Of a stretch of DNA of 64,000 nucleotides, positions 5,600 to 60,627 are shown in pieces. The notes under the pieces are model-generated. The model was not told the DNA's origin, did not search any database, and saw only the letters and a list, made by a program, of their open reading frames with translations. Position numbers and translations under genes: made by a program. The stretch is from IMG/VR virus record IMGVR_UViG_3300017708_001323, positions 3,780-67,779 of that record. One strand, given 5' to 3'. Source of the DNA: a virus (taxonomy: Duplodnaviria > Caudoviricetes). Every line of letters begins with the position of its first letter. Within the stretch, counting starts at the first letter, position 1.

Positions 5600-7023
5600 T
5601 ATATTTCCTCCACGAATAAATTATTAAATCCTTTTACTAAACCTATGGCCTCTTTCCCTTTTCCTATTGTACTTCTACCAGCATTTTTTCCAATAATAAA
5701 TCCACTAGAACTCACTGGCCTAACAGATACTACGGCTGTAACACTAATGTTAAGTTCATTAAATAATCCCATATTTTCAATTTTTATCTGATTGCTAATA
5801 TCTGGACTCATTTTAGTATCTTCTGCTATCAAACCGTCTGTAATACCTTGTAGAAGACCATCTACCCCCATACTCAAAGTTAGAAACTCAAAATCTGAAA
5901 GATTTGTACCAGAAACATGAGTTGTTTCCATAACTACATATTTTTTCCCATCATAAGAAATAATATTTCCCGGTCTTAAATCCCAAGCATTTATGTGTCC
6001 GTTTGATGATAAAGAGCCTTGACCTGTACTATTAGCCTTTAATATCTGTCTGGCTATTATAGAAGCCTCTTTTTCTGTTTTTACGGTAATATCAAAAAGT
6101 GGTGTTAGTTTAGATTGAATATTAGAATTAAAAGCGCCCTGTTGTCTAGATAAATCATTTACAGTAACTTCTGTGGGGTCATTTAATGCAAGTGGAATTC
6201 CTCTAACACTAACACTGTTTATTGTGTCGTCTACAGGGTTTCTTGTTTCTGTACCTGTTCTATCTCTAGATAAAAGAAGTCTAGAAGAATCTGAAAAATT
6301 AAAAGGTACATATAATAAATTAGAAAATCTATCAAACATTATAACTCTATAATCATGGCGGGCGATAAATTTCAAAGCCGCTAAAATATTAATTTTCTTA
6401 AAATCTTGAGCAAGGAATTTATGGCTATGGAATCTTCTATTAAAATTAGAATTAGATATATTTCTATTGCTACCAATATTGATACTAGTTACAGTGTCTG
6501 TTATATTTTTTGTTAATTGAATTGCCAAATCTGTAGTTCTAAACCCTACATCTATTGGTTGTGCTAAATGGACTGTATCTCCTATAAAACCTAAATCTGA
6601 AATTGTTTTTTCTTGCATATTTTTAAGATTAACATTTACCCCTTTAGATTTAGAATCAAAAGAACTTGGTTTTAATCTTTGAGAGGTTTCTAAAGAATTG
6701 TAAAATAACATTAAATTAGAATGCCCAGATTTAATATTACCACCTTCATAATAAGGTGTGCCCTCGTATGTATGACCAGCCCTCTGTGAATGTGTTAACT
6801 CTACAGCAGAAGATGTTTCTTTAATTTGATAAGTATTTTGAGAAGCGACATGATATGTAGCGGCTTTTCTGTTTTCAATAATAACTTTATTTTTATCAGA
6901 TGTTTGAATATTTAGATTAGAATAATGTATAGCATTATCTACTAAAACTGGCTTTCTTATGTCATTCATCACAGTGTCAAGGGATGTGTCAAATGAACCA
7001 GTCGCATCTTCAACTAATGTCAT
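5599..7023 (-). CDS. Putative tail tip/baseplate hub-like protein, 474 aa
   Basis: ATGA overlap with the giant gene; C-terminal 'DLRPGNIISYDGKKYVVMETTH' resembles hub/tail-tip beta-barrel segments. Confidence 0.5.
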   Translation of the reverse strand: MTLVEDATGSFDTSLDTVMNDIRKPVLVDNAIHYSNLNIQTSDKNKVIIENRKAATYHVASQNTYQIKETSSAVELTHSQRAGHTYEGTPYYEGGNIKSGHSNLMLFYNSLETSQRLKPSSFDSKSKGVNVNLKNMQEKTISDLGFIGDTVHLAQPIDVGFRTTDLAIQLTKNITDTVTSINIGSNRNISNSNFNRRFHSHKFLAQDFKKINILAALKFIARHDYRVIMFDRFSNLLYVPFNFSDSSRLLLSRDRTGTETRNPVDDTINSVSVRGIPLALNDPTEVTVNDLSRQQGAFNSNIQSKLTPLFDITVKTEKEASIIARQILKANSTGQGSLSSNGHINAWDLRPGNIISYDGKKYVVMETTHVSGTNLSDFEFLTLSMGVDGLLQGITDGLIAEDTKMSPDISNQIKIENMGLFNELNISVTAVVSVRPVSSSGFIIGKNAGRSTIGKGKEAIGLVKGFNNLFVEEI

Positions 7024-19000: not shown

Positions 19001-22000
19001 CAGCAATTCCCATTCCGTCACTTCCATCATTATCTTTTACGATGGAAGCAACACTTTGAATTATAGAAGAGGCTCTTTTTGGTTTTATTTTTTTAGCATG
19101 AGGATTGGATTCAGGACCTTCTTTAAACTCTACAGCGCTTACATACTGGCGTAGCCCATAATCTACATTACCACCTTGTGTTTTAGCACTTCCAGCATCA
19201 AAGTAGTAATCACTTCTATTTTCAAAAGCAGCGCTAGGAGTATAAGGTTCGTCACCTATTGCTATTAATTGTTCATCGCTAGGGAATGTTCCTAGAGATA
19301 TTGCCGAGCCGACTTTTACTTCATTTCTAAATTTCACAGAAGCAGCCCAAGGCTCATCTGGTATTCGTAAAAATCCACTACTAACAGGATTATTATCATA
19401 CAGCGCCCAAGCGCCACTTTTCAAAAATATTCTTCTAAATCTAGGAACATATTGTAAGTTTTGATAATTACCAGAATACACTGTAGAATTTGTCACTGCA
19501 TCTGATGTAGGAAAATGGTTTAGATTACCTACATATAATTCTAAGTTTGAGCCATTTACAACTAATTCTTTAGTTACATGTGTTATTTGGTCTTGAATCT
19601 CACCTATTGATTTTTTAAAATTATAAGCAGAAAATTTAGTTCTATCAGAATTGTAAGATTTACCCGGTCTTTTTCCTACCGGAGAAGGGTTCCAAGAATG
19701 TGCTGTGTAAGTAGCATCAATATGAAACTTAAATGAATTATCTTTTCCTACATAAACCTCGTCTGTTTCATTTGAAAATAATTGGTTTTCAAAAATTGGT
19801 AATTCTACTAGCGCTCTAGTACTAGCATATTGTGTGCCTAATTGATAATCATGATTAACATCAGAACCTTCTTGAATCATTCTATCATTTACTGTAGTAC
19901 CGTCATTGGACAAAGAATCTGTATTATAATATGGGTCGGAATTTACTGTGAAAGAAACAGGAGTAGCGGTTGCAGATAATGTGACCCCGGAAGTTTCATT
20001 TATCCCTAACAACCAGTTTGCAAAAGTAGAGTAGTCTTTTCCATTTCCATCTAAGTACTTTTGAGAGTTAGCAGCGGGAGGGTCATTAAAAGTAAAACTA
20101 GTTCCATTTTTAGAATCATACAATGCACTACTACCATCTTCTAAATATATTCTACCTTTCTTAGCAAACCCATAGGTTCCCCAACTAGCCATATCTGGAG
20201 ATTTATTATTTAGGGGTTTAACATTCAGTACACCGTTATTACTAGAATAAGTAGCCGAAACTGTTTGTACATGGTACGCTCTTTGTGTAGAAAAAGGTAA
20301 ACGAGATAAGAGACTAGGGTCATATGAAGGTTTTATGTCATTTCCACCTTGCCCTAAACCACCTAAAGAAACTGTAACTACTGGTGCGTTAGGTTCTATT
20401 TCTTTTACAATATGTGAATCTGTGCTTCCTGAACCAATTTGTGAAACTATTTGATTTGTTGTACTCTCATTCACACCGTGGGCGGTTACAACAGTTGACA
20501 TAGTACCTCCATTTTCTTTTTCTGAAATACTACTAACTCTACCTTTCGTCATTAAAAACAACATTCTTATTAGATTAGGTTCTTCTACATCACTAGCAAC
20601 AGTTCTTAGATTGTATAATTGATTGAATCTTTTTCTATCACTTGGTTGAATAAAAAATCTAAGATTATACGCTGAATCTTCATTAGTAATATGGTTGTCT
20701 ATTATATCAAAAAACTCATGTATAGGGCTATTAGATAGTGTTGTGCCTATATCGAATTGTCCATTAGAAGGACCACTGATGATAGTGCTAGGCTCTCTTC
20801 TGAAATATGTAGTTTTATCAGTTAGGATTTTTGCTTTACTTGTAGTATTAGGAAAAATTAACATTTTATGAAAAACACTATCGTGGTCTTCTTTTATTGT
20901 GTGAGATGCTAAAACAATCCCCGGAGGTGTTGCAGGTTGAGCAGACGCACTGGCTACAGGAGAATAGTTAGTGCCAGTATCGTTTCTTGGTGAATAAGAA
21001 AAATCTAATTCTGTATCTGATTCATAACCTTCAGAAGTATCACCGACTAAACTGTGAGGTCTATTAGTCATAGTTAATTCATTTTTAGCAGCCACATCTA
21101 TGTAACCACCGGGAGCGTAAAGGGTACAATTTGCTAAATCTGATGCAATTACATCATACAAAGTAGTACCTTCAGCAACTAGTGTAGAACCTGATGGACT
21201 CATTTGTGAAACCATAAGATATGGTTTTCCGTTTGTGTCCATTGAACCACCTGTTAAATCAACAGCGTTATAATGAATTAAGACTGTTTGAGAAAAACCA
21301 GCGTAGTTTAATAATTTTGGAACTTTAAGTACAGCGATTCTAGATACTCTAGAAGGTCTTAAATGATATTTTCGTGATTCTTCATTTATTTCTCCATACT
21401 GAGGAACAGGCCCTTTCAACATAAATGGCGCAAAATCAAAATTATTTCCACCTATACCAATTATTTCTTTACTACCTGTAGGTAAACCATTACTTACTAT
21501 CGCGGATATTGAACTTGAATTTACTACATTAACAATTTTATAATCTTCAACTTTTCTATAAATATCAATTCTTTGATTTTCTATGATATCTTTTGTGGCA
21601 CCTAACTGTGAAGAATCGTAATATATTTCAGCAATGTCTGGACTTCCGTCTACCTGTTGATGAATAATTTCTTCATTAGGTTCGGGTAACATTTTCATAA
21701 ACTCATGACTTTCAACATGATTTAGAGTGTGTCTACCGGAGTGTCCAATTTTGAAACCATCATCCAAACCACTAGGCCAAGTAACAGCAAAAGGATTATT
21801 TGTATCAACATCGGAAGTTGAAAGCCGACTAGAATATACTATACCATGTTGATTATGTTTGGATTCATCTAAAATCATTTGACCTGTTCTATCTATCATC
21901 TGAGTAGCGTAATGTAATGGTTGATAGGGATATCCTGTCGCACTATCAATTAATAAATCAGAACTTATAATTACAAAGTTATTATCCCCACTAGACCTAG

Positions 22001-35284: not shown

Positions 35285-38200
35285 CTATTTATATGAAGCG
35301 GATTTTAATTTTTTCTTAGTATCTCTTTTAGCCTTAGGATAATCTTCAGGTTTCTCTGGTTCCTCAGTAGGTCTACTTCTCATATCATAATCAGGCATAG
35401 TGCTCTCATCTTGTAGAACTGTTGGTCCTCTTGGACTTCCGTTTGGTTCTCCCAAATCAATACCTAAACCCCTTCCTGCCATATTTGAATGCCCTTTATC
35501 TAGTGCGTCTAAACTCCTTTCTATAATTTCCAAGGCTTTTTCAAAATTAGGTTTAAGTAATCTATTCTTATCATCGGCATCTACAAGTCCCGCACTTTCT
35601 TCTTCTTGTATTTCTTCTCTAACTTTTTTATCTTCGGCAGGAAGTTTAGTTACTTTACCTTTCAACATTAAACTAGCAACTTGTCCCCAAAACGGCTTCA
35701 GACTTTCAGATAACTCTATGCTATATTCTCCTAGACCCATATCTGAAAGGGAAGTAGTTGGGGAATGAACCCAATATCCTAAAGAAGATTTTTCTAATTT
35801 ATAGATAACACTATCATCATTAGGTAAAGAAATTATGAGATTGTTATCTACAATATCAATATCGTGTGGTAAATGAATAGGAGGGAATGATTTAGCAAGT
35901 AGAGATAATGTCTCTAAACTTGCACTTCCTTCACCCTCACCTTCACCGACTAACTTACTTAATTGAACATTATATACATCTCTTTCATAGTTTTCATTCT
36001 TTTCTACACCAGTGAATCTTGCCCTAACAATCTCACCTTCTTCAAATGGTTTAGGACTAGTGATTGTTGCTACATCGACATAAACTTGGTCTTTGAAAGG
36101 AACAGCCCTATCCCCAAATCCTTCTTTGTCGATTACTGGCCCAGCGCCTAATCTGTAAATAAACTCAGGAGCCTCACCTCTTCTATCTAAAACAATTAGA
36201 TTTAAATCTCTATTCTTACGCAATAAAACCCACTTAGGATGTCTCTTTTCTCCTCGCATGTAAGTGGATTTATTATCTCTCAATAAAAGAGTAGAGTGTT
36301 CTTTACTCAAACTATCTACTGCATCTTTCAACCCTTCATCATCTGTAAATCGAGTATCATGTGGTCCACAAATTATCACTTCTTCATGGCTATCAAATTG
36401 TCCTCTTAAAACTTTAAATCTCTCTCTAACAGTCATATCCATAATATCTGTACCATCATAATGCATGATGTCAATTACGTGTAGATTCTTTTTGGATAGT
36501 ATAGCATCAAATGTAGCATCTTTTTCTCCTAATTTTTTGATGCCCGTTTTCACCCAATCAGGAACTGCACCTCTACTACCATCTTCATAATACGCTGTGA
36601 CTCTCTTATTTTTCTTAGTGATGACTAATCTCTTACCATCATACCATTTTGAGACACACCAACCACCAGTAAAACCTCTAAGTTCTTCTAATTGTTTAAA
36701 CTTGAATATTCTATGCATTGGTCTAATCGGCGGAACCCAACCCGGTTCCTTATCCCCTTTAATTAATAATTCATCAGGATTCAATAATAAGTTAGCATAA
36801 ACTCCCGCATCTTTTCCTAATAAATTTAGAGGGTCAGATGCCATAGATTGCACATCACCAAAACCTTCAGGTATTTTAGTTGCGTGAGATTGCTCACTTT
36901 CTAAAGGTCTAGTTTCAGCGTTTTGAATCTGAGCGCTCATCTCGTTACCAAATGCCACATTCAAATGTTGTGGAGCAGGTTCAGTTAATCTTTGTGTATG
37001 ATTTGTAGGATAAAAAGCAGGTTTACCACCTTCAAAAGATAAAGCACCTTCTGGTTTCATTTCTAATCCTGTTTTGAAACACTCCCCAAACAAGTTAGTT
37101 ACAGTAGGTCCACTACCATCATGTGAAACTGGTTGATTAAACCAATCTATTTTTTCAGTAGAAACTTTTGTGTCTAAAGGTGTATCTGAACCATCATGTA
37201 AAACTAAACCTCTTAGATTGTGTGTGGCCTCACTATGAGGGTGCATTTTAGGTGTAGTAGATTGAGACCCCCTTGTAATTTTCAAACCATACGGTCTACT
37301 TCTTTTACTTGTAGCAAAAGGTGTATTTTGTTCCGTTACCCCACTTTGTTTGTGATACTCGTCAACCGTATCACCTTCTAGATATGAAATACCTAAAGCC
37401 TGTGCGTGTTCTTTTTGTCCAAATAAATTTTTAATTAAACCACTTCTACTATGAACTGAGTTATTATCAGGTATGTCACCAATTAACTCAGCATGTAACT
37501 CATTCACATGATTATCTAAAGCCTTTTTCATATCTTCAAAATTCGCTGAGTCGTGCTCTATACCTATTTTTTCTAAATTACGAGAAAGACTCTTTTTAGT
37601 TAATTCAGGGTTTCTGGAATGCCTTTCCTCTATATTATTTAATAATCCAGAGAGAGAATTAAACTCTCTTTCTGTATTTCTTAAAGGTTCTAATCTCTCT
37701 ATTTCAGTTTTAAATTTTAATTTATCTTGTTCAGAAAATTTTGGTGTAAGATTACCTTCTTCATCTTTAGTAGTTTGATTTATATATTTTCTAAGATTAG
37801 AAATTCTAGTTTTTATGTCTTTAGTACCATGACCTGATTCTTCAAAGAGGTGTTCATCTATATCCCTATCATATTCTTCATTGAATAAATTAGATAATAT
37901 TTGTTTATTAGACATCAAGAATCTTCCCTCACCTTCAGGAATTGTGCCTAAAGTTTTTTTGATATGGGCTAAATGTTCTTTATCTAAAGGAAACCCTAAC
38001 TGTTCTGCTATTTCTTTTGCATTGGTTTCGCTATGTACTGGAATACCAGCCTGTTTTATAAAACTACCAAGACCATGTAGTTTAGAATCTAAAGGCATTT
38101 CTTCTTTAGAGAGTCCCCAATCTATAGTAGTAGGATGGGATATACCTAATTCTTCATAATACTCAGGCGGTAATACTTTCAAGGCTATATTTGCATCAGC

Positions 38201-40765
38201 AAATAATCTTGCAACATTCTCTCTAATTGCTGGATTACTTGGGTCTAAGAAACCATCAGGGTAATACTGAGTTAAATGTTTAGCCATTTCAGAAATAATA
38301 CGAGTATCACCATTTAATTTCTCATTAAGTTTATGCCCATGATAACTTCCTTCAAATAATCTAGCAGAAATTTCATCACCAACTTGATAATTATAAATAT
38401 CTGGGCCTTCTCTTAATTGTAATTTTTTAGCATAAAAAAGAGCATTTCTAGATGCTTTTTTATCTTTCATAGTCATTTCTTGAAAAGAGTTTTCTAGTGT
38501 ATCGCTTATATCTGTTACAACATCATCATCAACTATTCTTTCAATTCCCATTCCCCTTTCTAATCCATAAGGGTTATCCGAATTAGGATTTGTAGAGAAT
38601 AAAAAGGGTGATAAATCTTCAACAAACTTTTTTTGTTTATATTTTTCTTGATTGTTGTTTCTATCATTACCATGTAGTAGACTAGAAATTTGAGGATGAG
38701 TAGAATGATTTCTATCAGCATTTATAATATTAGCAAAACCTCCAACTTTTTTAATTAGGCTTTTGTTATGTTGTAAAGCATGAGAACTAATCTTACTTTC
38801 TTCTGGTCTTGGTAAGATTAAATGTCCAAACAAACCTTGATTTTGATTAGGAATTTTGTGGTCTCCTCTTGTTGAACCCATAATCGAATCCCCTTCTTTA
38901 GATGCTATTGGCCCATGTAATGACCTGAATAATGTGTGGAAATCCATTCCTAAAGCCGCCCCTCTATATGCAGGAGCGAATAAAGATGCAGGAGTCCCTC
39001 CCAAATCTTCCAAGGCTTTTCTTATTTCTGGAGAAGTAAAATCATCATGAGATTTATTACTCCCATAAAAATTGTAAGCATCTGTTAATTGGTTGTGTTT
39101 TGTCCCTAATCCTAAAAAGTCTTTTTTCTTTCTCATTAATTCTTTTAACATTTTATTATCTATTAAAGGACCAGAAAAGTTGTCATAAACTTCATGTTCT
39201 TCCATCTCATTACCGTCTGAATTAAAACCCAAAGAGTGTAAAAGATTTCTTTCAGGAACCATATTTTTAACACTTCTACTTTCTTTTGCTAGGACTTTTT
39301 TAAAATCATCACCGGATTCTCTTTTTAATTTTAGTAATCTTTTCTTACTCATATTAGGAAACGCTTGGAATAACCAACCATCCTCATCAATATCATGTCC
39401 CATAGAGTCATGTAAATTTTCTAAAGCAATTTCAGATAGAGGTTTTAGAATTTGGTCTTTACTTTTTTTATCATAAGTGATATCCCCAATAATTTTTCCA
39501 TCTTTATCTACAGGTACTCTTGCTGCTCTAAAAGCAGAATCAAAAGCAAATTTATCTTTATCGGTTTCAGGTAAATTAGACATTAATCTAGGAGTTATAT
39601 TATTATCCCCACCTAAATGTGGCTCATTAGAAGTAAATGTTTTTGCATTTGCACTTCTAGTTCTTAAGGTTCTTTTTAATCTACCCATAGGTAATTCAAA
39701 ACCATCATTAAATTTTAATAATTGCCTATTAGAATCACTCCCTTTATTTTTATCATGAAGATGTTCAAAAATCTTAGTTCTTTCCTCTGGTGAATACCAC
39801 TCTAAGCCTAATTTAAATGCTAAATCTGAAAGATATTCTGGGTGAGCCATATCTTTTGGGTTTTCTACATCAACCTCACTTTCATCACCGTAAAATGCTT
39901 GATATTCAGCGTCTACAGTTTCTGGATTTTCTTCATGTACTAAATTTTCCCAAGATTTTAATCTATCAGTAAAATGCTTTTGTCTTAACTCAAAATCACT
40001 AGAACCATCATCGTTATTTTCTTTCCAACGTTCAAAATCCCTATTGTACGCATCGACTTCATGACTTAATGTATTAGAGCCTTTACCTGTGTACAAAGGG
40101 CCAAGAAAACTATATCCACCCTTAACATTTTTTGAAACAGCATGATTACTTGTTTTAGTTAGATAATCTTCAACTGCTATTTCATATTTTTTTATTTTCT
40201 CAGCAATTGTTTTTTCACCTTCTTTTGCTGGTAAAAATTTTTTTGCTAATATATGAAAACGCATCGGTAAACCAGAAGAAGGTTCAATCCTATGAAGCGG
40301 ATTATGGTCTCTATCAAAAGGATGAGACTTAGGATAAATACTAGTTGGGTCTTTTTTAACTTCTAATTGAGCACCATGTCCCCTTGCTGCTGTATGTGGG
40401 ATGTGTTCGTCAGTATATTCTTCAATTCTAGATTTTATCCTATTTTTAAATGGGTCGTCTACACTATTGTGACCCCTTCTATCTAATCTTAGTAATGCTT
40501 TTTCTTCCCTAGATAGTATTCTTTTCTTTCTTTTTTCTTTAATTAATAAATCACAAACTTCTTCTTTCCAAGTAGGATTCAAATCAAATCCATTTGCATC
40601 AAGATTGGCTTTAGCAAAAACATACTCTTCAACATAAGTTGGAATATCTTCATCTAAAACAGAAACAGCGTTTACTAAATCGTCTCTTGCTCTTATGAAA
40701 ATATCAGCAGCATCTTCTTGCACACTAAAACCACCTTTTTCACTCGTTGGTCTTAGACTCTCCAC
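35285..40765 (-). CDS. 1826-aa head-module protein with a C-terminal degenerate ATP-dependent DNA ligase-like domain
   Basis: WCVSKWYDGKR, FDAIL, HVIDIMHYDG..RERFKVL and LLLRDNKSTY..RHPKWVLLR motifs plus an OB-like segment at about 35890-36760; the first ~1340 aa are unrecognised. Confidence 0.7.
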   Translation of the reverse strand: MESLRPTSEKGGFSVQEDAADIFIRARDDLVNAVSVLDEDIPTYVEEYVFAKANLDANGFDLNPTWKEEVCDLLIKEKRKKRILSREEKALLRLDRRGHNSVDDPFKNRIKSRIEEYTDEHIPHTAARGHGAQLEVKKDPTSIYPKSHPFDRDHNPLHRIEPSSGLPMRFHILAKKFLPAKEGEKTIAEKIKKYEIAVEDYLTKTSNHAVSKNVKGGYSFLGPLYTGKGSNTLSHEVDAYNRDFERWKENNDDGSSDFELRQKHFTDRLKSWENLVHEENPETVDAEYQAFYGDESEVDVENPKDMAHPEYLSDLAFKLGLEWYSPEERTKIFEHLHDKNKGSDSNRQLLKFNDGFELPMGRLKRTLRTRSANAKTFTSNEPHLGGDNNITPRLMSNLPETDKDKFAFDSAFRAARVPVDKDGKIIGDITYDKKSKDQILKPLSEIALENLHDSMGHDIDEDGWLFQAFPNMSKKRLLKLKRESGDDFKKVLAKESRSVKNMVPERNLLHSLGFNSDGNEMEEHEVYDNFSGPLIDNKMLKELMRKKKDFLGLGTKHNQLTDAYNFYGSNKSHDDFTSPEIRKALEDLGGTPASLFAPAYRGAALGMDFHTLFRSLHGPIASKEGDSIMGSTRGDHKIPNQNQGLFGHLILPRPEESKISSHALQHNKSLIKKVGGFANIINADRNHSTHPQISSLLHGNDRNNNQEKYKQKKFVEDLSPFLFSTNPNSDNPYGLERGMGIERIVDDDVVTDISDTLENSFQEMTMKDKKASRNALFYAKKLQLREGPDIYNYQVGDEISARLFEGSYHGHKLNEKLNGDTRIISEMAKHLTQYYPDGFLDPSNPAIRENVARLFADANIALKVLPPEYYEELGISHPTTIDWGLSKEEMPLDSKLHGLGSFIKQAGIPVHSETNAKEIAEQLGFPLDKEHLAHIKKTLGTIPEGEGRFLMSNKQILSNLFNEEYDRDIDEHLFEESGHGTKDIKTRISNLRKYINQTTKDEEGNLTPKFSEQDKLKFKTEIERLEPLRNTEREFNSLSGLLNNIEERHSRNPELTKKSLSRNLEKIGIEHDSANFEDMKKALDNHVNELHAELIGDIPDNNSVHSRSGLIKNLFGQKEHAQALGISYLEGDTVDEYHKQSGVTEQNTPFATSKRSRPYGLKITRGSQSTTPKMHPHSEATHNLRGLVLHDGSDTPLDTKVSTEKIDWFNQPVSHDGSGPTVTNLFGECFKTGLEMKPEGALSFEGGKPAFYPTNHTQRLTEPAPQHLNVAFGNEMSAQIQNAETRPLESEQSHATKIPEGFGDVQSMASDPLNLLGKDAGVYANLLLNPDELLIKGDKEPGWVPPIRPMHRIFKFKQLEELRGFTGGWCVSKWYDGKRLVITKKNKRVTAYYEDGSRGAVPDWVKTGIKKLGEKDATFDAILSKKNLHVIDIMHYDGTDIMDMTVRERFKVLRGQFDSHEEVIICGPHDTRFTDDEGLKDAVDSLSKEHSTLLLRDNKSTYMRGEKRHPKWVLLRKNRDLNLIVLDRRGEAPEFIYRLGAGPVIDKEGFGDRAVPFKDQVYVDVATITSPKPFEEGEIVRARFTGVEKNENYERDVYNVQLSKLVGEGEGEGSASLETLSLLAKSFPPIHLPHDIDIVDNNLIISLPNDDSVIYKLEKSSLGYWVHSPTTSLSDMGLGEYSIELSESLKPFWGQVASLMLKGKVTKLPAEDKKVREEIQEEESAGLVDADDKNRLLKPNFEKALEIIERSLDALDKGHSNMAGRGLGIDLGEPNGSPRGPTVLQDESTMPDYDMRSRPTEEPEKPEDYPKAKRDTKKKLKSASYK
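35286..35293 (-). promoter_or_regulatory. Archaeal-type TATA box for the protease/capsid operon
   Basis: TATAAATA on the minus strand about 25 nt upstream of the ATG at 35261; no obvious RBS, consistent with a leaderless transcript. Confidence 0.5.
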
Positions 40766-50995: not shown

Positions 50996-51390
50996 TAATC
51001 CCCCATAAGATACTCACTAGAGCGTTGTAACGCAGAGGCTATGTCTTCATAGAACTGTTGGATGCTAGGTGGGTCGAGAAAACAACTTCCCATTAATTTT
51101 AACTCACCTCTTATTCTTGGTAAAATTTCTCTTAACTTTCTTCTTGTTTCAAAAACAATTTCAGGCTCATCAGATTCACAGAGAGTTTTTAGATAATCAA
51201 TTATTTCTAAAATAGCGCTACCAAAAACTAATTGAAGATTCTCTTTTTCAACATAAAAGTTAAACTTTTGAAACACTAAAGAAATATAATCTAAAAACAC
51301 AGGTAGTCTTTTTTCATCAATGATTATGTTATCATGTAATAGTCTGTAACCGGGATGTGATGAAACAAATAACTCATCAATTATAATCAC
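50992..51390 (-). CDS. Hypothetical helical protein (~132 aa)
   Basis: Likely GTG start overlapping the upstream stop (GTGA), with a GGAG RBS. Confidence 0.6.
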   Translation of the reverse strand: MIIIDELFVSSHPGYRLLHDNIIIDEKRLPVFLDYISLVFQKFNFYVEKENLQLVFGSAILEIIDYLKTLCESDEPEIVFETRRKLREILPRIRGELKLMGSCFLDPPSIQQFYEDIASALQRSSEYLMGDY

Positions 51391-52073
51391 GCTATATCTC
51401 CTCCAGCAGATTCGATTAATTGAGATTTTATTCGTTTCCAAGATTCAGGAGATTCCTTGGCTAATTCTACTTTTAAGATATTTATTGTTTGATTTACAGT
51501 TGTTTCTGTAGTATCACTACCCCAAGTATCATTGAATTTTACTAAGTCTTTTATTGATTCTCTTACTTCTTTATGTAATGATACAGCATCTCTAACAAAT
51601 CCATCTTCATGAACACTACCCTCAGAAAGTAATTCTGAAAGTTTATCATTTAGTTTTTCAACATTGTTTCTAAGTATTCCAAGTTCTTGACCAACTGTAA
51701 TTGCGACCTCAACTGCTGCTGATTTCTTAACCAGCGGTTGAAAGTGGTGCTTCATGTGATGATACACAGTATTCTCAGCAATATCTAATTCCTGTGCAAT
51801 AGCCTCCGATTCTGACCCATCAGTAAAAAATCTAGCCTCAAAAGCAGACCTGTCATCATGGGAGCAAATAACGCATCTGGGATTAGCACCCATGTGGTAC
51901 TCTCCCATATGATTTCTAAAATGCCTATCAGAAGTATTTGCTCGCCAACCCATCTCTTGGTCCATTTGTTTCGGAGTTATATTACCCGCAAGTAAATCAT
52001 CTTCGAGTCCATCTCTATCTGGATGTTGACAAAAGGAACAAGAGCGTTTTGTTATACGCGCCTCTTCGTCCAT
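51387..52073 (-). CDS. Putative terminase small subunit / Zn-HTH DNA-binding protein, 228 aa
   Basis: Two CxxC..HTH..HxxxH repeats (CSFCQHPDR...RHFRNH; CVICSHDDR...HHMKHH) followed by a coiled coil; upstream of terL in the same operon. Confidence 0.5.
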   Translation of the reverse strand: MDEEARITKRSCSFCQHPDRDGLEDDLLAGNITPKQMDQEMGWRANTSDRHFRNHMGEYHMGANPRCVICSHDDRSAFEARFFTDGSESEAIAQELDIAENTVYHHMKHHFQPLVKKSAAVEVAITVGQELGILRNNVEKLNDKLSELLSEGSVHEDGFVRDAVSLHKEVRESIKDLVKFNDTWGSDTTETTVNQTINILKVELAKESPESWKRIKSQLIESAGGDIA

Positions 52074-52114
52074 TGATTATCGTATGATAACCTTGTTATT
52101 CAATATTATTACCA

Positions 52115-52360
52115 CTATTGTGTTATTCTTGCGTAAACCGCACTTAGAAACACAAGCGAAGAGAATAAACCAAAGACGAAAAATGTAGCCTCGTTAGTTG
52201 ATAAATCCGCACCTCTAAATAATAAAACTGCTACCATCATCACAATCAAAGAAATTAACTGAACCATTATCATATCAATTATTACACTACGTTGTGGACT
52301 CCACATACCTAATGCCATTTCATTCATTTGATTAATTGGGTTTGGTATTCCTGACATCAT
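52115..52360 (-). CDS. Small two-TM membrane protein, 81 aa
   Basis: Two hydrophobic stretches (VIIDMIMVQLISLIVMMVAVLLF; FFVFGLFSSLVFLSAVY). Confidence 0.75.
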   Translation of the reverse strand: MMSGIPNPINQMNEMALGMWSPQRSVIIDMIMVQLISLIVMMVAVLLFRGADLSTNEATFFVFGLFSSLVFLSAVYARITQ

Positions 52361-53007
52361 TATGCTCTACCTCCGAATAATAAACTACGAGCAGTACTAC
52401 CAACAGCATTACCAACGTTTTCCATCATACCGGGATTTTCAAGCGCCGCACCTAACGCTCCCTGCAACATAGATTGTTGTGACATAGCCAAAACTTGTTG
52501 TCTTCTCATCTCTGCTTGTTGGATAATTGCTGTTGATTGATTTTGTAAATTACTTAATTGAGCAACAATATTTTCAGCAGATAATGTTTGTAAGTCAGAA
52601 GGAAGAGTTGTAACGTCTAAACTAAGAGTACCAGTTTCCTCGTCTAGTTTAAATTTAGCATTTTTTAATACATTTAGAAAAGAGAATGTAGAAATATTAG
52701 ATAACATTTCAATCATAACAGGCATTTGAGCACTTACAATAAACTTTTCAACAGGATTTAATGTTTCAAGCATAGCCATCAAAATCTCTGTTTCAGAAGG
52801 AGGGGCTACAGGTTGTTGAGCAAATTGATTAAATTGATTATATTGGTCTTGCATTCCAAGCCCCGCCACAAAACCCTGTGCTACTGGTTGTTGACCAAAA
52901 CCGAATTGTTGCTGCTGTTGTTGCCCAAATGGTGCCCCAGTTTGTGATAAATTGAGAGAAGATGTAGATTGTGGAGTTTGATGTGTATTTCCGAATATTC
53001 CTACCAT
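52360..53007 (-). CDS. Gln-rich protein, 215 aa
   Basis: Q/F/G-rich N-terminus (PFGQQQQQQFGFGQQ) and a helical C-terminus. Confidence 0.7.
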   Translation of the reverse strand: MVGIFGNTHQTPQSTSSLNLSQTGAPFGQQQQQQFGFGQQPVAQGFVAGLGMQDQYNQFNQFAQQPVAPPSETEILMAMLETLNPVEKFIVSAQMPVMIEMLSNISTFSFLNVLKNAKFKLDEETGTLSLDVTTLPSDLQTLSAENIVAQLSNLQNQSTAIIQQAEMRRQQVLAMSQQSMLQGALGAALENPGMMENVGNAVGSTARSLLFGGRA

Positions 53008-53009
53008 AA

Positions 53010-53963
53010 CTAATTCACCCCTTGTGTATTCGGTATGGGGGCCGTGTTATTAGGTTGCTGATTAATAATTTGTTGAAAAGCAGGTGTTGGTTGATTTATT
53101 TCTAACAATTCTTTTTGGAATATCCGTAAATCAAATGTTACTGTAGTAATATCATTTATTCCTGTTTCTGGGTTTTTATAATGAGTGATATTTATTCCTT
53201 CATAGGCTCTAGCGTCTTTTTCTAGTAATTCAAAAAAAGGCTCATACTTCGATAACATCAAAGGTGTATCTGCATCATTTTTTTGCATCACACTAACAGG
53301 TACAGTAACAATGGAAACTCCTTGTTTTACTTTATCGCGTAAACGATTAGGATTCATTTCATATTCTCTTTCTTCTTCAGTTTCCCATTTACAAAGAAGG
53401 TGAAATAAATGTAAATGTTCAGGACAATAAGTTCCTCTCATTTTTCTACCACTGGTTACTTTATCCATTGCTAAAAACGCTTCAGCCTGTCCAGTTACTG
53501 GGTTTTGCCAATACATATCCCAAAGACTTCTACCAGTTTCATCATCACATATTTTCTCGTAAAGATTATCATATTGAATTAATTCTTTACAATCACAACC
53601 ATCTACCACACAAACGTGTGATTGCTTATTGTACCTGTATTTACTACCAAAAAGTCTTGCTGGAGAAATTAGACTTCTTTTTGCTGGCTTTAATAATTTA
53701 TACGCTTGACGTATATCTTGTTTTCTGGCTTTTCTAGAATTACCATGAGTTGATGGATAAAAATTAACTTTAGGGACTTCTAAATTTTTTTGAGAAGCCA
53801 TTTCTTGCATAGAACGTTGAGCAGCGGCTTGTTCCATTAAAACTGCTCTATTTAATTGAGGATTACCTTGTGCGGCAAGAGCCATTAATGCTGTTTCGTT
53901 AGAATGACCTAAAGAATTAATTTGTTGTTGATTATTATAACCGGGGATATAATTAGATACCAT
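53010..53963 (-). CDS. Zn-binding protein with Q/N-rich termini, 317 aa
   Basis: CVVDGCDC and YCPEH motifs. Confidence 0.7.
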   Translation of the reverse strand: MVSNYIPGYNNQQQINSLGHSNETALMALAAQGNPQLNRAVLMEQAAAQRSMQEMASQKNLEVPKVNFYPSTHGNSRKARKQDIRQAYKLLKPAKRSLISPARLFGSKYRYNKQSHVCVVDGCDCKELIQYDNLYEKICDDETGRSLWDMYWQNPVTGQAEAFLAMDKVTSGRKMRGTYCPEHLHLFHLLCKWETEEEREYEMNPNRLRDKVKQGVSIVTVPVSVMQKNDADTPLMLSKYEPFFELLEKDARAYEGINITHYKNPETGINDITTVTFDLRIFQKELLEINQPTPAFQQIINQQPNNTAPIPNTQGVN

Positions 53964-53967
53964 ATTA

Positions 53968-54153
53968 TCACTTCTGTTGAGGAGTCACCTTTACACACAA
54001 TTCTCCATCTTCATTAACATCAAACTTCCAACTTAGTTTTTCTCCCGCTGTGAGTTTAAATTGTTCAATTATCCACATCGGAACAGTTGTTCTTAGACTA
54101 TTAGAGCCTCCTCCGGTTGACACAAGAGTGGTCTCATTATTCACTCTTGCCAT
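53968..54153 (-). CDS. AbrB/MazE/SpoVT-like DNA-binding protein (~61 aa)
   Basis: GGGSNSLRTTVPMWIIEQFKLTAGEKLSW fits the swapped-hairpin consensus; likely start is the ATG at 54153 behind GGTAGTGGTG. Confidence 0.75.
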   Translation of the reverse strand: MARVNNETTLVSTGGGSNSLRTTVPMWIIEQFKLTAGEKLSWKFDVNEDGELCVKVTPQQK

Positions 54154-54215
54154 TAGTTGGCGCACCACTACCCATATCAAAAAGGTTACTGATGAGGTCA
54201 CTTGACAGGTACACA

Positions 54216-54938
54216 CTACATTGTTAATAAATCTAACATTGTAATTTCAACATTCCATCCTATTCTAGTAGCCATAAAACTTCTTTTTGTTCTGATACCT
54301 GATTTTTGTAAACGAATTAAATCATCTCTAAAGGGGTCAAATACCTTATGTTCTCCTATTCTACCTTGTTGCCAAAGTAAAGCGGCGTTGTCATCAAAAA
54401 ATCTGTCTGCTTTGTTTGCTACTAACATTATCAGTTTAGGTGAATATTTTCTACCTTTTATTCTACTTCTTATGCTTCTATAACGATAATTACGAGAAAT
54501 TAAAACATCACATAAATATTTGAATCCCGCAACTTGTTCCATACCTTCAGCCCCACCCTTCAAAGCCCTTTCATCGAACATATAGATTATCGCTTCCGCT
54601 TGTCGATATACCATATCTTCTATCCAAAGATTCCAATATCTTTCTTGTCCACCTATATCAGCAGAGTTCACAACTCGCTTTTCACCTTTCCAAGATACTC
54701 TTTTTTTAGTCGATTTAGGTAAAATGTATCTTGTTAATATTTTATAATGTTCAGTTCTTTCATCAATAGGGATATCATACATCTCTCCGGGTGTTGTCAT
54801 ATAAGAATCCAAAGTGGTTTTACCTACCATTGCTGTTCCATAAATACCAACACTACGTGGACGCCAAGCGTTGTAAATATTTTGACCCCATAGTGCAGCG
54901 CCTACTAAAACACTACCAGTCATACTCAAAGTAATCAC
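54216..54938 (-). CDS. Small GTPase, Ras/Arf-like superfamily, 240 aa
   Basis: G1 GTAMVGKT, G2 Thr (ERT), G3 DIGGQ, G4 NKAD, G5-like FMAT; hydrophobic N-terminal helix. Confidence 0.88.
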   Translation of the reverse strand: MITLSMTGSVLVGAALWGQNIYNAWRPRSVGIYGTAMVGKTTLDSYMTTPGEMYDIPIDERTEHYKILTRYILPKSTKKRVSWKGEKRVVNSADIGGQERYWNLWIEDMVYRQAEAIIYMFDERALKGGAEGMEQVAGFKYLCDVLISRNYRYRSIRSRIKGRKYSPKLIMLVANKADRFFDDNAALLWQQGRIGEHKVFDPFRDDLIRLQKSGIRTKRSFMATRIGWNVEITMLDLLTM

Positions 54939-54948
54939 CTACCTTAAA

Positions 54949-55206
54949 TCAACTAAATTTATTTGTTAACCAAGAGCCAAAATCTGCTATTTGCTGATAA
55001 CCCCATTCTACTGTTGATTCCCATAAAGAAAAGTCACTATTCGCTTCAAGAGCACTAATAATAAAAACCGAAGCAACTGCTACCACAACAGTTCTAATCC
55101 AACCATATCCCCATTCATATACGTTATCAACTGTATTAGCCAAATGCATGGCTCTAAGTGTTTCTTCTACTGAATCATCTTTTGGAGTTTTGAAAATCTT
55201 ACCCAT
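54949..55206 (-). CDS. Small membrane protein, 85 aa
   Basis: TM segment WIRTVVVAVASVFIISAL and a Trp-rich amphipathic C-terminus. Confidence 0.7.
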   Translation of the reverse strand: MGKIFKTPKDDSVEETLRAMHLANTVDNVYEWGYGWIRTVVVAVASVFIISALEANSDFSLWESTVEWGYQQIADFGSWLTNKFS

Positions 55207-55211
55207 CTAGT

Positions 55212-55877
55212 TCAACTCTTATATCTGAGGTCAGGTGTTCCATCCTTTTTTAACCTCATGCCAGATTCGTTTTGAGTTGGCTTTCCATCTTTAGGAGGAG
55301 TTGGTAAATCTTTTACCATAGAATCAGTCATTTGATAAATTTCTCTCATATTAGCGGATTCGACTCCTAAACCTAATGGTTGTTGTACATTAGTATTGTG
55401 TGTAGGAATGCCGGGATTAAAAGTAGAATGATAATCTAATCCTAAATTAGCCATATTATTAACATCTCTATTTTCTGTTAAAAATGAAGGCGGTGACATA
55501 ATTTTATCAGGATTCTCATGCATCCATCTTAATTCTTTTTCTAATTCCATTTCTTGTCTTCTTAATTCCATATCAGACCTTCTTTGGTCAAAGTTAACTT
55601 GCATATTCCTGAACCTAGATTGATGTTGTCTTTGAAATTCCGTCATCCTAGCACGTTCTCTAAGATTTCTTTCAAAGAACATTTTGAATAAATAGTATGC
55701 TAAACCTTGTAAAGCAAAAGCACCCATTGAGTAATTTAAACCATTCATCCATGTTTCTTCATTCACTAGCCATAATTTTGAATCAAAAATAGCAACTGCA
55801 ACCCCAATCAATGCAGACTGACTTATTATTAATCCCATCAATCTAATTTCGGAATCTGTTGTATCAGACATATACAC
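55212..55877 (-). CDS. Two-TM membrane protein with a coiled coil, 221 aa
   Basis: Two N-terminal hydrophobic helices, an R/E/Q coiled coil, and a C-terminal LKKDGTPDLRYK motif. Confidence 0.72.
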   Translation of the reverse strand: MYMSDTTDSEIRLMGLIISQSALIGVAVAIFDSKLWLVNEETWMNGLNYSMGAFALQGLAYYLFKMFFERNLRERARMTEFQRQHQSRFRNMQVNFDQRRSDMELRRQEMELEKELRWMHENPDKIMSPPSFLTENRDVNNMANLGLDYHSTFNPGIPTHNTNVQQPLGLGVESANMREIYQMTDSMVKDLPTPPKDGKPTQNESGMRLKKDGTPDLRYKS

Positions 55878-55921
55878 ACCTTGTGAAAGGCCACGGATGG
55901 GGTCACCTTAAACCCTTCTGA

Positions 55922-56027
55922 GTAAAAATCCGAGGTTTTTACCCATTTGTCTTATTTATCTTATTATTAGTATGTATATAATAATTAATATATATGTATA
56001 GAGTCTATATTAATAATAAGACAAATG
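55922..56027. other. AT-rich intergenic element bounded by a 13-bp perfect inverted repeat
   Basis: catttgtcttatt (55944-55956) pairs with aataagacaaatg (56015-56027); an adjacent hairpin reads gtaaaaa-N7-tttttac. Confidence 0.75.
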
Positions 56028-56030
56028 AGA

Positions 56031-56384
56031 TTAACAGTTCCAGCGTTTTAGTGCAGCACCTTTTGGTGTTAATTTCCCATCCTTACTAGTCGGCCCTTTA
56101 CTTCCGCCCATTCTAGCACAAAATGACTTTCGCCTTTTTGCTGCTTTACTACCGGGTTTTAGTGAACTTGGTTTTTTAGTAACAGGTCTTTTCAAGTTAG
56201 CACCTGTTTCTCTTTTTGCTTTGGCTCGACCTTTTGCATTTAATCCACCACTTCTACTATGTCTGTTTGGATTATAACCATGAAATGGTTTTGATTTTTT
56301 TGCTTTCTCAAAAACAGAATCTAACAATGCTGCTGATGCTTGTTGCATAGGTGAACAACAATCACATATGTCAAAATTATTCAT
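56031..56384 (-). CDS. Basic small protein (DUF6321-like marine phage family), 117 aa
   Basis: GGLNAKGRA..LKRPV..RRKSFCARMGG..ALKRWNC motif, recognised from marine phage proteins. Confidence 0.65.
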   Translation of the reverse strand: MNNFDICDCCSPMQQASAALLDSVFEKAKKSKPFHGYNPNRHSRSGGLNAKGRAKAKRETGANLKRPVTKKPSSLKPGSKAAKRRKSFCARMGGSKGPTSKDGKLTPKGAALKRWNC

Positions 56385-57111
56385 TTCTCACTCCTATCTC
56401 ATTCAAGAAAGATTGTCCCTTTGCCCTCATTATTGCTCTTTCTGCGATTTCTTCAGGAGTACCAGTTACATCAATAGAAGGTTTAGCACTAAGATATTCT
56501 TCAACAGGTACATATGGACGAGTATAAGAAAAATCAAGAGCGTATATGTCATTTTCAGGGTAATCTCTACCTTCAAATTGGTCCATTACGTTAGGTTCTC
56601 CTTCGAAAGGTGAATCAGGGTGGTCGTGATTTCTTTCAGCCTGAGTTTCATCTAACAATTTCTCCCTACCTCTACGGGCGACACCGCCAGTCTGTTTGTA
56701 ATTACGATGTCTCCTAGGGTCGGTTTCCCATTCCATTGTTTCAGGCTTTATCGGTAAGGTCGCTTTCAACACATCCCACGCTGCGGAGAAAGCACTCATG
56801 TCGCTTCGCATAGTGTAGTCTGTCTTAACAATTGTTGGTTTCCCACCCACACCTTGCTTTTTTGCACGTTTTCTTTTTGTCGCTGCTTGTTTCTCACCTG
56901 ATGACATAGAACCTGATGTTTTAGGTGTTTTACTTGAAACTTTGATTGAAGGTCTGCATTTAGGATAACCTTTACCTGAAAGTTTTCCCTTGCTTCTACC
57001 ACATGGTGGGTGCTTACCATCTTTAGTACGTGACACATCTACCCATTTTTCCTTAAACCAACGGTTTAAGTTTTTTACAATGAGCACATCGTGACAAGTA
57101 CATCGTGTCAT
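56377..57111 (-). CDS. DUF5872-like basic domain fused to an AFxxAWxxLK-leader module, 244 aa
   Basis: LNRWFKEKWVDV..CGRS..YPKCRP, then an internal MSAFSAAWDVLKA. Confidence 0.65.
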   Translation of the reverse strand: MTRCTCHDVLIVKNLNRWFKEKWVDVSRTKDGKHPPCGRSKGKLSGKGYPKCRPSIKVSSKTPKTSGSMSSGEKQAATKRKRAKKQGVGGKPTIVKTDYTMRSDMSAFSAAWDVLKATLPIKPETMEWETDPRRHRNYKQTGGVARRGREKLLDETQAERNHDHPDSPFEGEPNVMDQFEGRDYPENDIYALDFSYTRPYVPVEEYLSAKPSIDVTGTPEEIAERAIMRAKGQSFLNEIGVRNE

Positions 57112-59244: not shown

Positions 59245-59543
59245 TGGGCTATGTTCTAGTCAAGGCTGCACCTGTTGTTGCTGCTGCTGCTGGTGGTGCT
59301 GCTGGTGGTGCTGGTGCTGCTGCTGGTGGTGCTGCTGGTGGTGGTGCTCTTGCTTCAAAGATAGGAGTTAAAGGTGCTGTAAAAGGAGCATTAGGTTTGA
59401 AAACATTCCAATCTTTAAATGATGCTAAAAATCAAGCAAAAGATATTTCTGGACAAAATCAGGGTCAATATAAACAATTAGCGGCTGAAACTCGTCAGAT
59501 GTTAAGAGATAAGGCTTCTACGAATTCCGCTCAGTTTTCCTGA
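59244..59543 (+). CDS. Ala/Gly-rich small protein, the only likely complete plus-strand gene, 99 aa
   Basis: Starts MGYVLVKA, then (GCT/GGT)n low complexity; fills a gap that has no long minus-strand ORF. Confidence 0.6.
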   Translation: MGYVLVKAAPVVAAAAGGAAGGAGAAAGGAAGGGALASKIGVKGAVKGALGLKTFQSLNDAKNQAKDISGQNQGQYKQLAAETRQMLRDKASTNSAQFS

Positions 59544-60422
59544 AACATAAATATAGGCTCTTTCAGCCATCGGAATATTAACAATTCCTTTTAGGTACAT
59601 TTCAGCGGCCTCTAATTTTGCAATATCTACAGATTGTTCAATTTCAATTCCGTAATCCGAAGCCCAGTCAATTAAATACCGAGTTGGTAAATTACCAAAA
59701 CTACCCGGAACAAAAGGACAACCACCTAAACCGCCCAAAGAAGTATCGAACTCCCTAATACCGGATAAGTAGGCAGCATCCAGTAAATGTGAAAATTCAA
59801 CCTTCCTACTACTAGGCTTGTGTAGGTGAATGGCTAAATTTGGCATAATTTCTCGGGCAATTTTTACCACGGTGGTAATTTCTTTTGGAGTCGCTATTCC
59901 TGTAGTGTCTGCTAAAACTATTGTAGAAGAGTTTTCAGCCCCCCATTTTAAGATTTGAATAAAAAGAGACTCATCATAATCATCGAAAGCGGAACCAAAA
60001 GCGCAAGAAATGTATAACCTCACCTGTTCAGGAAGAGTCTCTTCTAGAGCAACTTCATATCTTTCTAGTATTCTATCAATACTTGGTGTACCTAAATTGC
60101 GGGTATTGAACTCTGGAGAAGGTGAAAGATAGATATTGAAGAGATTCACACCCGCTTCTTTTGCTAATTCTAAACCTTTTGCGTTTGGGACTAATGCTGA
60201 AATTTGATTATCTTCTTGATTTATTCCCTTTAAAACCAATGCGGTATCTTTCATTTGAGGTACCAAAGCGGGATTCACAAAACTTCCAACTTCTATTTTA
60301 TCCAATCCCGCTGCAATTAACATATCAATTAAATACGCTTTTTGCTCAGTAGGAACTTCTTTAGAAATAGACTGTAAACCGTCTCTTGGACCCACTTCAT
60401 AAATTGTTACTGGGTCACTCAT
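59502..60422 (-). CDS. hmgL: Hydroxymethylglutaryl-CoA lyase (DRE-TIM family), auxiliary metabolic gene
   Basis: EVGPRDGLQ, IEVGSFV..VPQM, LADTTG, HLH, GLGGCPF and GNLPT motifs; likely start MSDPVTI at 60422. Confidence 0.9.
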   Translation of the reverse strand: MSDPVTIYEVGPRDGLQSISKEVPTEQKAYLIDMLIAAGLDKIEVGSFVNPALVPQMKDTALVLKGINQEDNQISALVPNAKGLELAKEAGVNLFNIYLSPSPEFNTRNLGTPSIDRILERYEVALEETLPEQVRLYISCAFGSAFDDYDESLFIQILKWGAENSSTIVLADTTGIATPKEITTVVKIAREIMPNLAIHLHKPSSRKVEFSHLLDAAYLSGIREFDTSLGGLGGCPFVPGSFGNLPTRYLIDWASDYGIEIEQSVDIAKLEAAEMYLKGIVNIPMAERAYIYVSGKLSGIRRSLIS

Positions 60423-60435
60423 GGGGTGTGCGAAC

Positions 60436-60627
60436 TCACTGTCGTAAATTAGCATATCGCTGGAAAAGCAATCCAGCCTCCTCTTCTAGCCGAGTATTAC
60501 CACTCATCATCATCTTCAAAATTGTTGACATAACAATTTGTCTTTCTTCAACAGTAAAATTTGATTCCGGCGGGTACGCTTTTAGCACTTGCCAAGCCTC
60601 AGTAAAAGGTTCAGGAGTGGTACTCAT
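60436..60627 (-). CDS. Leader-family protein (PFTEAWQVLKA), ~63 aa
   Basis: ATG at 60627 lies 22 nt downstream of a TTTATAAA box. Confidence 0.65.
   Translation of the reverse strand: MSTTPEPFTEAWQVLKAYPPESNFTVEERQIVMSTILKMMMSGNTRLEEEAGLLFQRYANLRQ

Follow-up and report, generated by a model that had tools for sequence, protein, structure and literature searches.

A conserved Arf-like GTPase and membrane-protein cassette in a magrovirus-like tailed virus, with a possible role in egress

Arf-family small GTPases, among them Arl8, Arl1, Arf1/6, Arl3/6, Sar1 and the Asgard ArfR proteins (e.g., GerdArfR1, PDB 8OUM/8OUN), are the closest profile and structural neighbours of a GTPase encoded in a compact gene cassette of a tailed virus. 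The cassette occupies positions 52115-55877, on the minus strand, of a stretch of 64 kb (the window) taken from the 67.8-kb viral record IMGVR_UViG_3300017708_001323, whose completeness is estimated at 63%. It consists of seven open reading frames (ORFs), g1 to g7, all present on that strand where a sequence-only reading of the window had placed them. Five of these form a core that is under strong purifying selection in three viral clades and encodes a membrane protein with a coiled-coil-like stretch, a small membrane protein, the GTPase, a Cys/His protein and a Gln-rich protein. The function placed first here, as a possibility that may well prove wrong, is that of a GTP switch anchored in the membrane and acting late, in egress or in the remodelling or disruption of membranes.

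Described systems closest to the cassette

Several features set the viral GTPase apart from the Arf family. It carries about 60 extra residues, inserted around switch I and behind helix 3, and has no Trp ahead of the G3 Asp. Its N-terminal helix is hydrophobic and nearly uncharged, whereas the Arf helix is amphipathic; its catalytic Gln varies (16 of 86 relatives), and the Pfam Arf cut-off is reached by none of 14 family members. In addition, the gene belongs to a prokaryotic tailed virus and its neighbours are fixed.

A second system of interest is found in archaea, where the Arf-like GTPase ArvA is described as required for extracellular-vesicle formation in Haloferax volcanii and as vesiculating the euryarchaeal membrane (PMC10927574). 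The ArvA-ArvB-ArvC (OapABC) operon resembles the viral cassette in its small GTPase of about 212-242 aa with an N-terminal helix, in its compactness, in its Zn-binding protein and, if the viral proteins work as proposed, in acting on an archaeal (euryarchaeal) membrane; unlike the viral cassette, it has no membrane-protein partners. Eleven ArvA and 11 ArvC sequences, located in genomes of the same phylum via the neighbouring OapB, were used for comparison. The likeness to ArvA is local ([IV]GIYG....GKTTL...IP.E.R; hhalign 94.1% over 50 columns, 15-65), and ArvA aligns with Asgard Arf-like proteins over 161 columns, as against only 50 for the viral family. The G3 motif is DTPGIATK in the 11 ArvA sequences and DxGGQ in the viral GTPase. 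Given the short alignment and the different type of G3, the identification of the viral protein as ArvA was rejected, as was that of g5 as ArvC (a DUF2072 Zn-ribbon protein), for which hhalign against the 11-sequence ArvC alignment gave 0.3% and Pfam gave no match. None of the seven cassette proteins has a Pfam match to OapB (PF09846) or OapC at E<=1.

Lysis genes of tailed phages are the third point of reference. In these phages, sets of genes for non-structural membrane proteins that precede the terminase genes (lambda, T7) or separate the head genes from the tail genes (P2) serve lysis and form part of late operons: lambda S-R-Rz stands before Nu1/A, T7 17.5 and 18.5 lie around the terminase genes, and P2 Y-K-lysABC falls between head and tail. 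The viral cassette is likewise a compact, non-structural set with small membrane proteins inside a morphogenetic operon, in a variable position, and its g7 protein has the size and the topology, with two transmembrane (TM) segments, of a holin. It differs from holin-based cassettes in having neither endolysin nor spanin and no sequence relation found to holin families, and known lysis cassettes offer no parallel to its GTPase, Cys/His protein and Q-rich protein. A holin family with an adjacent cell-wall hydrolase was not recognised in the cassette, and the diversity of holins still permits g7, g1 or g2 to be holin-like. Across the 34 window proteins scanned against Pfam (27 of them), PHROGs, PADLOC or NCBIfam, no lysis family was found, a scan that does not amount to a whole-window check for endolysins.

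Finally, SRbeta offers a different model, in which the GTPase together with g1 and g2 would form a targeting receptor that guides viral membrane proteins or secreted proteins into the membrane or to their location. This is highly unlikely. SRbeta ranks under the Arf/Arl rows and sequence profiles favour Arf/Arl; there is no Pfam SRPRB match, and no partner resembling SRalpha, SRX or a longin was recognised. The virus also encodes few other predicted membrane proteins that such a receptor could serve, about ten further ORFs in the complete relative G001 by a crude TM scan that mis-called plus-strand ORFs over g1 and g2 and serves here for strand organisation only.

The GTPase and its viral family

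The GTPase gene, g3 (54216-54938, minus strand), encodes 240 aa and was characterised through its motifs, profiles and an AlphaFold2 (AF2) model; its start is ambiguous among GTG 54938, TTG 54929 and ATG 54923. The G1, G3 and G4 motifs are intact, as had been noticed from the sequence (GTAMVGKT at 34-41, DIGGQERYWNLW at 94-105 and NKAD at 175-178), and are accompanied by an invariant RTxH in the switch I region, a DIGGQ form of G3 and a G5 motif ATRIGWNV. These elements are retained almost throughout 86 relatives (G1, RTxH and NKxD in 86/86, D.GG and G5 in 85/86). With G1, G3, G4 and G5 all in place, the protein has the motif set of a Ras-superfamily (TRAFAC) small GTPase. The AF2 model, built from a 14-sequence alignment (predicted local distance difference test score 88.1, predicted template modelling score 0.84), has the small-GTPase fold, with a helix at residues 3-25 preceding the P-loop strand.

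Placement within the superfamily depends on profile-profile comparison and structural ranking. In Foldseek all Ras-superfamily branches match the model about equally, while in the structural ranking the best 18 rows all belong to the Arf family, and the model resembles GTP-bound Arf/Arl structures. The best PDB match of the family profile is 8oun_A (2.2e-5), which is taken to be a GerdArfR1 chain in view of the title of entry 8oum, followed by Arl8A/B, Arl5 and Rab33B. Entry 8OUN is cited in the Asgard ArfR preprint. When the family was aligned by hhalign with five Asgard Arf-like proteins, a probability of 96.7% was obtained (E 3.5e-10, 100 columns). The sequence-only assignment to the Arf branch of small GTPases is thus upheld by both kinds of comparison, with an Asgard ArfR chain and then Arl8 leading the profile matches and rows 1-18 of the structural ranking. 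Conventional family searches return less. Pfam matches of the window protein to Roc (4.8e-4) and Ras (9e-3) lie below cut-off, the Arf cut-off (PF00025) is passed by 0/14 family members (E<0.1 in five of them, best 4.8e-3), NCBIfam gives small_GTP only, sub-threshold, and a single-sequence phmmer search of the PDB gives Arl6 only, at E 0.78. Because that Pfam cut-off is not reached and the N-terminal helix is unlike that of Arf, the g3 product is best called an Arf-like protein rather than a member of the Arf family.

That helix deserves separate attention. It has one charged residue in 27, a positive mean hydrophobicity and a low hydrophobic moment, and an equivalent segment is present in all eight family sequences examined; the N-terminal helices of Asgard Arf-like and ArvA proteins have 7-8 charged residues in about 20 (8 in 20 for Asgard Arf-like proteins). 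All TM calls were made with a crude Kyte-Doolittle measure at a cut-off of 1.6, under which the helix, at 1.34, falls. The hydrophobic N-terminal helix seen in the earlier reading is therefore upheld, and it is conserved, but it looks more like a nearly uncharged anchor than like an Arf-type amphipathic helix. The segment is predicted to be a constitutive membrane anchor. A complex prediction for the GTPase with g2, run without controls, gave an interaction prediction score from aligned errors of 0.00 (mark 0.32) and counts neither for nor against an association.

The family appears to be the virus's own. A HMMER search over 1.84 billion representatives returned 75 proteins at E<=1e-3, of which all the best-scoring ones are family members or fragments, and a profile search recovered 615 family clusters at 90% identity; among the clusters listed, 0/120 had a precomputed Pfam domain. 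At least 244 IMG/VR contigs over two clades carry relatives. A further relative, with a GTPase 34% identical, lies on a 106-kb contig (L090) in a single-cell genome labelled Candidatus Poseidoniales, and in the order of that genome the family profile matched 1/301 genomes, the match being that viral contig itself. That the GTPase is a recent capture from the host, a passenger gene without a virus-specific system around it, is barely credible on this evidence. The JGI name 'GTPase SAR1 family protein', borne by some members, speaks for it; against it stand the want of any cellular relative at E<=1e-3 among the 1.84 billion representatives, the single match in the order, which is itself viral, the existence of 615 clusters, and a strict synteny in two clades (80/80 loci in each). 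An isolated recent capture, which the earlier reading had named as a way for its proposal to fail, is thus not what is seen, and the GTPase is well supported as a virus-specific, highly divergent Arf-like family.

A five-gene core among virion-building genes

The genes around the GTPase recur with it in related viruses. Clade 1, to which the window belongs, was surveyed in 80 loci kept from 104 IMG/VR contigs with close relatives (GTPase identity 67-97% among those kept). Here g1, g2, g3, g5, g6 and g7, together with d1, d3 and d4, are each found in 80/80 loci, TerL in 77, g4 in 71 and d2 in 53, and the order from g1 to TerL is collinear in every locus, a recurrence well past anything that chance would give. 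The gene g4 was found in 74/85 loci in a second count, and tblastn misses it in 9/80 close loci. On L090 the order is a 2-TM/coiled-coil protein, a small TM protein, the GTPase, a Cys/His protein, an M/Q/G-rich protein and a 2-TM protein, followed by a helix-turn-helix (HTH) protein; the AbrB-like gene is absent. Clade 2, whose GTPases are about 29-30% identical to that of the window, comprises 140 IMG/VR relatives, and 80 loci were kept, some of them cut by contig ends. The five-gene order is seen in 80/80 of these (b1 in 77, b2 in 80, GTPase in 80, b5 in 80 and b6 in 75). In clade 3, represented by four loci, the one locus read (L204) has the same five genes in the same order, and the GTPase and g5 were found by tblastn in another (L201).

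In hhalign comparisons between clades 1 and 2, the GTPase pair reaches 99.8%, g5 and b5 reach 74.7% (E 2.6e-5), g6 and b6 reach 60.5% (E 8.4e-5, 90 columns), and all off-diagonal pairs stay at or below 15%. No equivalent of g4 or g7 was detected in clade 2, and g7 is seen in clade 1 and L090. The genes of the block do co-occur across related viruses, collinearly in 80/80 clade-1 loci and also in L090 and clades 2 and 3, but the unit of seven genes put forward from the sequence has to be reduced. Gene order in three clades and the homologies between clades show a conserved unit made up of five genes (those for the 2-TM/coiled-coil protein, the small TM protein, the GTPase, the Cys/His protein and the Q-rich protein), and g4 and g7 are additions of this clade, g4 being missing from some loci.

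The core stands in different company in each clade: upstream of the HTH protein d1 and TerL in clade 1, between an SU10-type major capsid protein (MCP), with a SAP-domain protein, and a tail-tube gene in clade 2, and after a chaperonin gene in clade 3 (L204). The SAP-domain gene (Pfam SAP, 4.4e-10; 5487-5981 in the clade-2 locus L128) lies between the MCP gene and the cassette in 61/80 loci. The five genes thus move together among three contexts, all of them among virion-building genes.

This setting lends itself to a reading in which the cassette is a membrane-bound assembly platform, anchoring at the host membrane and timing the initiation of procapsids, the folding of capsid proteins with help from the chaperonin or the packaging of DNA, with the GTPase as a checkpoint. 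An analogue exists in phage T4, whose head assembly is initiated at the membrane by the gp20 portal and the membrane chaperone gp40. The cassette is always among morphogenetic genes (HTH/TerL, MCP/tail tube or chaperonin), and the long tether of g1, with a KKDGTPDLRY-like C-terminal peptide in 61/83 homologues, would suit the recruitment of soluble partners. However, no similarity to known assembly factors was found, tailed viruses generally assemble without such a module, the position relative to the capsid genes is not fixed, and in GenBank phages tblastn matched neither the GTPase (E<=1e-3) nor g5 or d1 (E<=0.01). An assembly platform is considered unlikely.

The partners of the GTPase have few recognisable features. 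The g1 protein (55212-55877, minus strand; likely start ATG 55871; 221 aa) had been described as a 2-TM protein with a coiled coil. A strong TM segment at 13-31 (score 2.21) and an Arg/Gln/Glu-rich, coiled-coil-like stretch at residues 68-125, followed by a disordered tail, agree with this, but the second hydrophobic segment, at about 47-67, is weak (maximum 1.06). No family was matched by g1 in Pfam, PHROGs, PADLOC or NCBIfam. The g2 protein (54949-55206, minus strand; 85 aa) has a single TM segment at 35-53 with Trp-rich segments on both sides of it, and its N-terminal 34 residues, taken to be cytoplasmic, are almost invariant in an alignment of close relatives. In g5 (53010-53963, minus strand; 317 aa), a Cys/His protein with Gln-rich ends, residues C118, C180, P181, H183, H185 and H188 are invariant together with K78-A79-R80 (consensus PRKAR); its predicted model is poor and searches returned nothing similar. 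The g6 protein (52360-53007, minus strand; 215 aa) begins with a Q/F/G-rich low-complexity stretch, continues with a conserved C-terminal domain of alpha/beta type and ends in a tail rich in Gly and Ala.

The two genes outside the core are g4 and g7. The g4 ORF spans 53968-54216 (minus strand) and probably starts at ATG 54153, which gives about 61 aa; its Pfam match to MazE_antitoxin (PF04014; E 2.8e-3, 18.0 bits) is below the cut-off of 24.7, and the product is a probable AbrB/MazE-like swapped-hairpin DNA-binding regulator, encoded by a clade-specific accessory gene. The holin-like g7 (52115-52360, minus strand; 81 aa) has TM segments at 30-48 and 59-77. Following the cassette by 41 nt, d1 (51387-52073, minus strand; 228 aa), a flanking gene outside the core, encodes a protein with a Zn-ribbon or two Cys/His clusters, as well as an HTH and, at the C-terminus, a coiled coil (Pfam GerE 8.7e-5 and HTH_20 8.5e-5, both sub-threshold). 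It is conserved at about 66% identity in the 80 close loci and is a candidate small terminase or late regulator. PADLOC matched no cassette protein, and PHROGs gave no family for g1-g7 or three downstream genes.

Spacing within the cassette is from -1 to 10 nt, except for 62 nt ahead of g4 when its ATG start is used. The block had been thought to be bounded by non-coding gaps, which is the case upstream, with an AT-rich gap of 153 nt, and not downstream, where the gap is 41 nt and no terminator-like site was found on the minus strand in 51300-56400. The transcription unit consequently seems to read on into d1 and TerL. A scan for sigma-70 promoters and intrinsic terminators was at chance level, with 0/3 terminator-like sites on the coding strand, and its bacterial consensus has little relevance here. 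The upstream gap holds a TATA-box-like motif, TTTAAGGTGACC (55901-55912, minus strand), about 30-40 nt before the g1 start and followed by a GAGGT-like ribosome-binding site. When 18 related loci are aligned, a motif of this kind (CCTTTATGATGACC-like) proves to be conserved at this site; it is a putative archaeal promoter of the cassette. The pattern TTTAWNNTGRCC has two matches in the window, both intergenic and on the minus strand, a count that is not significant, as 18/100 shuffles gave at least two. The second match, at 59463-59474 (minus strand), lies in the intergenic stretch downstream of an HMGL-like gene and may mark a further promoter of this type. Further upstream are a small hairpin (55919-55945) and, found by repeat search, an AT-rich inverted repeat (55944-56027) with perfect 13-nt arms (55944-55956 and 56015-56027), possibly an operator, or else a terminator for the unit upstream; in the 18-locus alignment, too, this place is taken by an AT-rich stretch between repeats. 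Beyond it, u1 (DUF6321, 2.1e-15) and u2 (DUF5872, 1.8e-10) adjoin the cassette at 56031-57111 (minus strand). In loci L001-L080 these two genes shift in order and position, even beyond TerL, while the order from g1 to TerL is constant.

The virus, its host and the possible function of the cassette

Every long ORF of the window is on the minus strand, and family scans identified an SU10-type MCP, a prohead protease, a portal, a T4-type TerL and a tail-tube-like protein. Four complete or near-complete relatives measure 102-107 kb, and all four encode PolB and a chaperonin; the nearest PolB proteins are those of haloarchaeal tailed viruses, at about 23% identity. The description of magroviruses by Philosof et al. 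2017 (PMC5434244) gives them a genome of about 100 kb that has an HK97-type structural module, PolB and a chaperonin, and links them to Marine Group II. The structural genes of the window, the size, PolB and chaperonin of its relatives, and the Poseidoniales single-cell contig, which also carries a chaperonin, match these hallmarks, so that the assignment of the window to a magrovirus-like tailed virus infecting Poseidoniales (Marine Group II) archaea is well supported. The complete relative G001 has its replication genes on the plus strand at 0.9-38.8 kb, and its structural genes form a 67-kb minus-strand arm, near the start of which the cassette is located, opposite the replication arm. The structural arm also holds two giant ORFs, of 5387 and 1826 aa, at 7020-23183 and 35285-40765 of the window (minus strand). 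An HMGL-like enzyme is encoded among the viral genes at 59502-60455 (minus strand; Pfam PF00682, E 2.8e-18, above cut-off); as an auxiliary metabolic gene it would be notable, since the 2017 description (PMC5434244) reported none in magroviruses.

The presumed host lineage differs from other members of its phylum with respect to vesiculation genes. OapB/ArvB is found in 74/151 sampled genomes of the phylum and in 0/61 of the single-cell genome's order, and an ArvA profile (E<=1e-10, used without a positive control) matched 0/101 genomes searched in that order, the genomes being incomplete in both cases. The lineage thus seems to lack the archaeal vesiculating GTPase operon, and a virus in need of such a function would have to bring it itself.

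An egress or membrane-disrupting role is placed first for the cassette because of the positional analogy with lysis cassettes, the precedent of vesiculation by ArvA, and the verdict of a 2024 review that the egress players of lytic archaeal tailed viruses are 'completely uncharacterized' (PMC10791045). According to this proposal, the two membrane proteins and the GTPase would accumulate in the host cytoplasmic membrane late in infection. Loading with GTP would then switch the G domain and recruit the soluble Cys/His and Q-rich partners, either of which may act as a GTPase-activating protein (GAP) or an effector, and the assembled complex would deform, vesiculate or permeabilise the membrane. 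Nucleotide hydrolysis could provide the timing, a role played in phages by holin triggering, and in a host without a murein wall membrane disruption might be enough to release tailed virions. Membrane insertion, the partnerships, the late timing and the egress role itself are all inferred.

Several observations weigh against this proposal. Late timing is deduced from gene position only, and a place within the morphogenetic operon is just as compatible with assembly. No homology was seen between any cassette protein and holins, endolysins or known pore formers, and no Pfam match of a cassette protein reaches its cut-off. For the two membrane proteins, no sequence similarity was detected from one clade to another (hhalign 0.3-0.4%), their equivalence being one of position and architecture. 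In 16/86 GTPase relatives, E, H or D takes the place of the catalytic Gln, so that a clock based on hydrolysis is not assured. Metatranscriptome contigs match parts of g1-g7 at 95-99% identity (runs X23 and X24, apparently one data set filed twice), and they are silent on strand, level and timing, with DNA possibly present in the libraries. The host call comes from one single-cell contig plus the family hallmarks, and other bins point elsewhere: an 8-kb contig with a GTPase 97% identical (L086) was binned in an Asgard-labelled metagenome-assembled genome (MAG), and short cassette contigs among L087-L089 in alphaproteobacterial MAGs (Maricaulis, Parvibaculum). These are probably mis-binned viral contigs, and they call for caution in host prediction based on MAGs.

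Remodelling of the membrane for ends other than egress has also been considered, whether to produce vesicles, to build a replication or assembly compartment, or to alter the cell surface so that superinfecting viruses are excluded. The Arf-like fold with a membrane anchor is in keeping with it, as is the vesiculation of euryarchaeal membranes by ArvA-type GTPases, and the Gln-rich low-complexity regions of g5, g6 and the g1 tail could drive condensate-like assemblies. The cassette nevertheless lies in the structural arm and not in the replication arm, PADLOC gave nothing for its proteins, and exclusion genes are usually variable accessories, whereas this cassette is a core feature of three clades. 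Such a role is judged quite unlikely.

The egress proposal can also be put in a stronger form, which is doubtful at present: the cassette would be a self-contained, virus-encoded remodelling machine of the Arf/Sar type, in which two viral membrane receptors recruit and regulate the anchored GTPase, the Cys/His protein acts as GAP or effector, and the Gln-rich partner forms a coat or condensate, all of them together rupturing or vesiculating the membrane for virion release. If this were true, the lysis system that archaeal tailed viruses have so far seemed to lack would be found, and with it the first GTPase-timed egress device in any prokaryotic virus, operating in a host lineage apparently without the cellular ArvABC vesiculation system.

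In the literature, no paper joining magroviruses and a GTPase was found, although supplementary gene tables and genome maps could still list the gene, and nothing relevant was found on virus-encoded Arf or small GTPases in archaeal viruses. Neither PMC5434244 nor PMC11706807 has the word 'GTPase' in its main text, and the Asgard ArfR preprint does not contain the word 'virus'. The cassette extends Arf-like GTPases with fixed partners to prokaryotic viruses, its carrier being a large tailed virus of abundant ocean archaea that has its own, very divergent Arf-type GTP switch, and the viral family bears on the rise of membrane-deforming GTPase systems outside eukaryotes and Asgard archaea. As a conserved, late-positioned membrane cassette with a GTP switch, it is a concrete and testable candidate for the means by which lytic archaeal tailed viruses leave their hosts.

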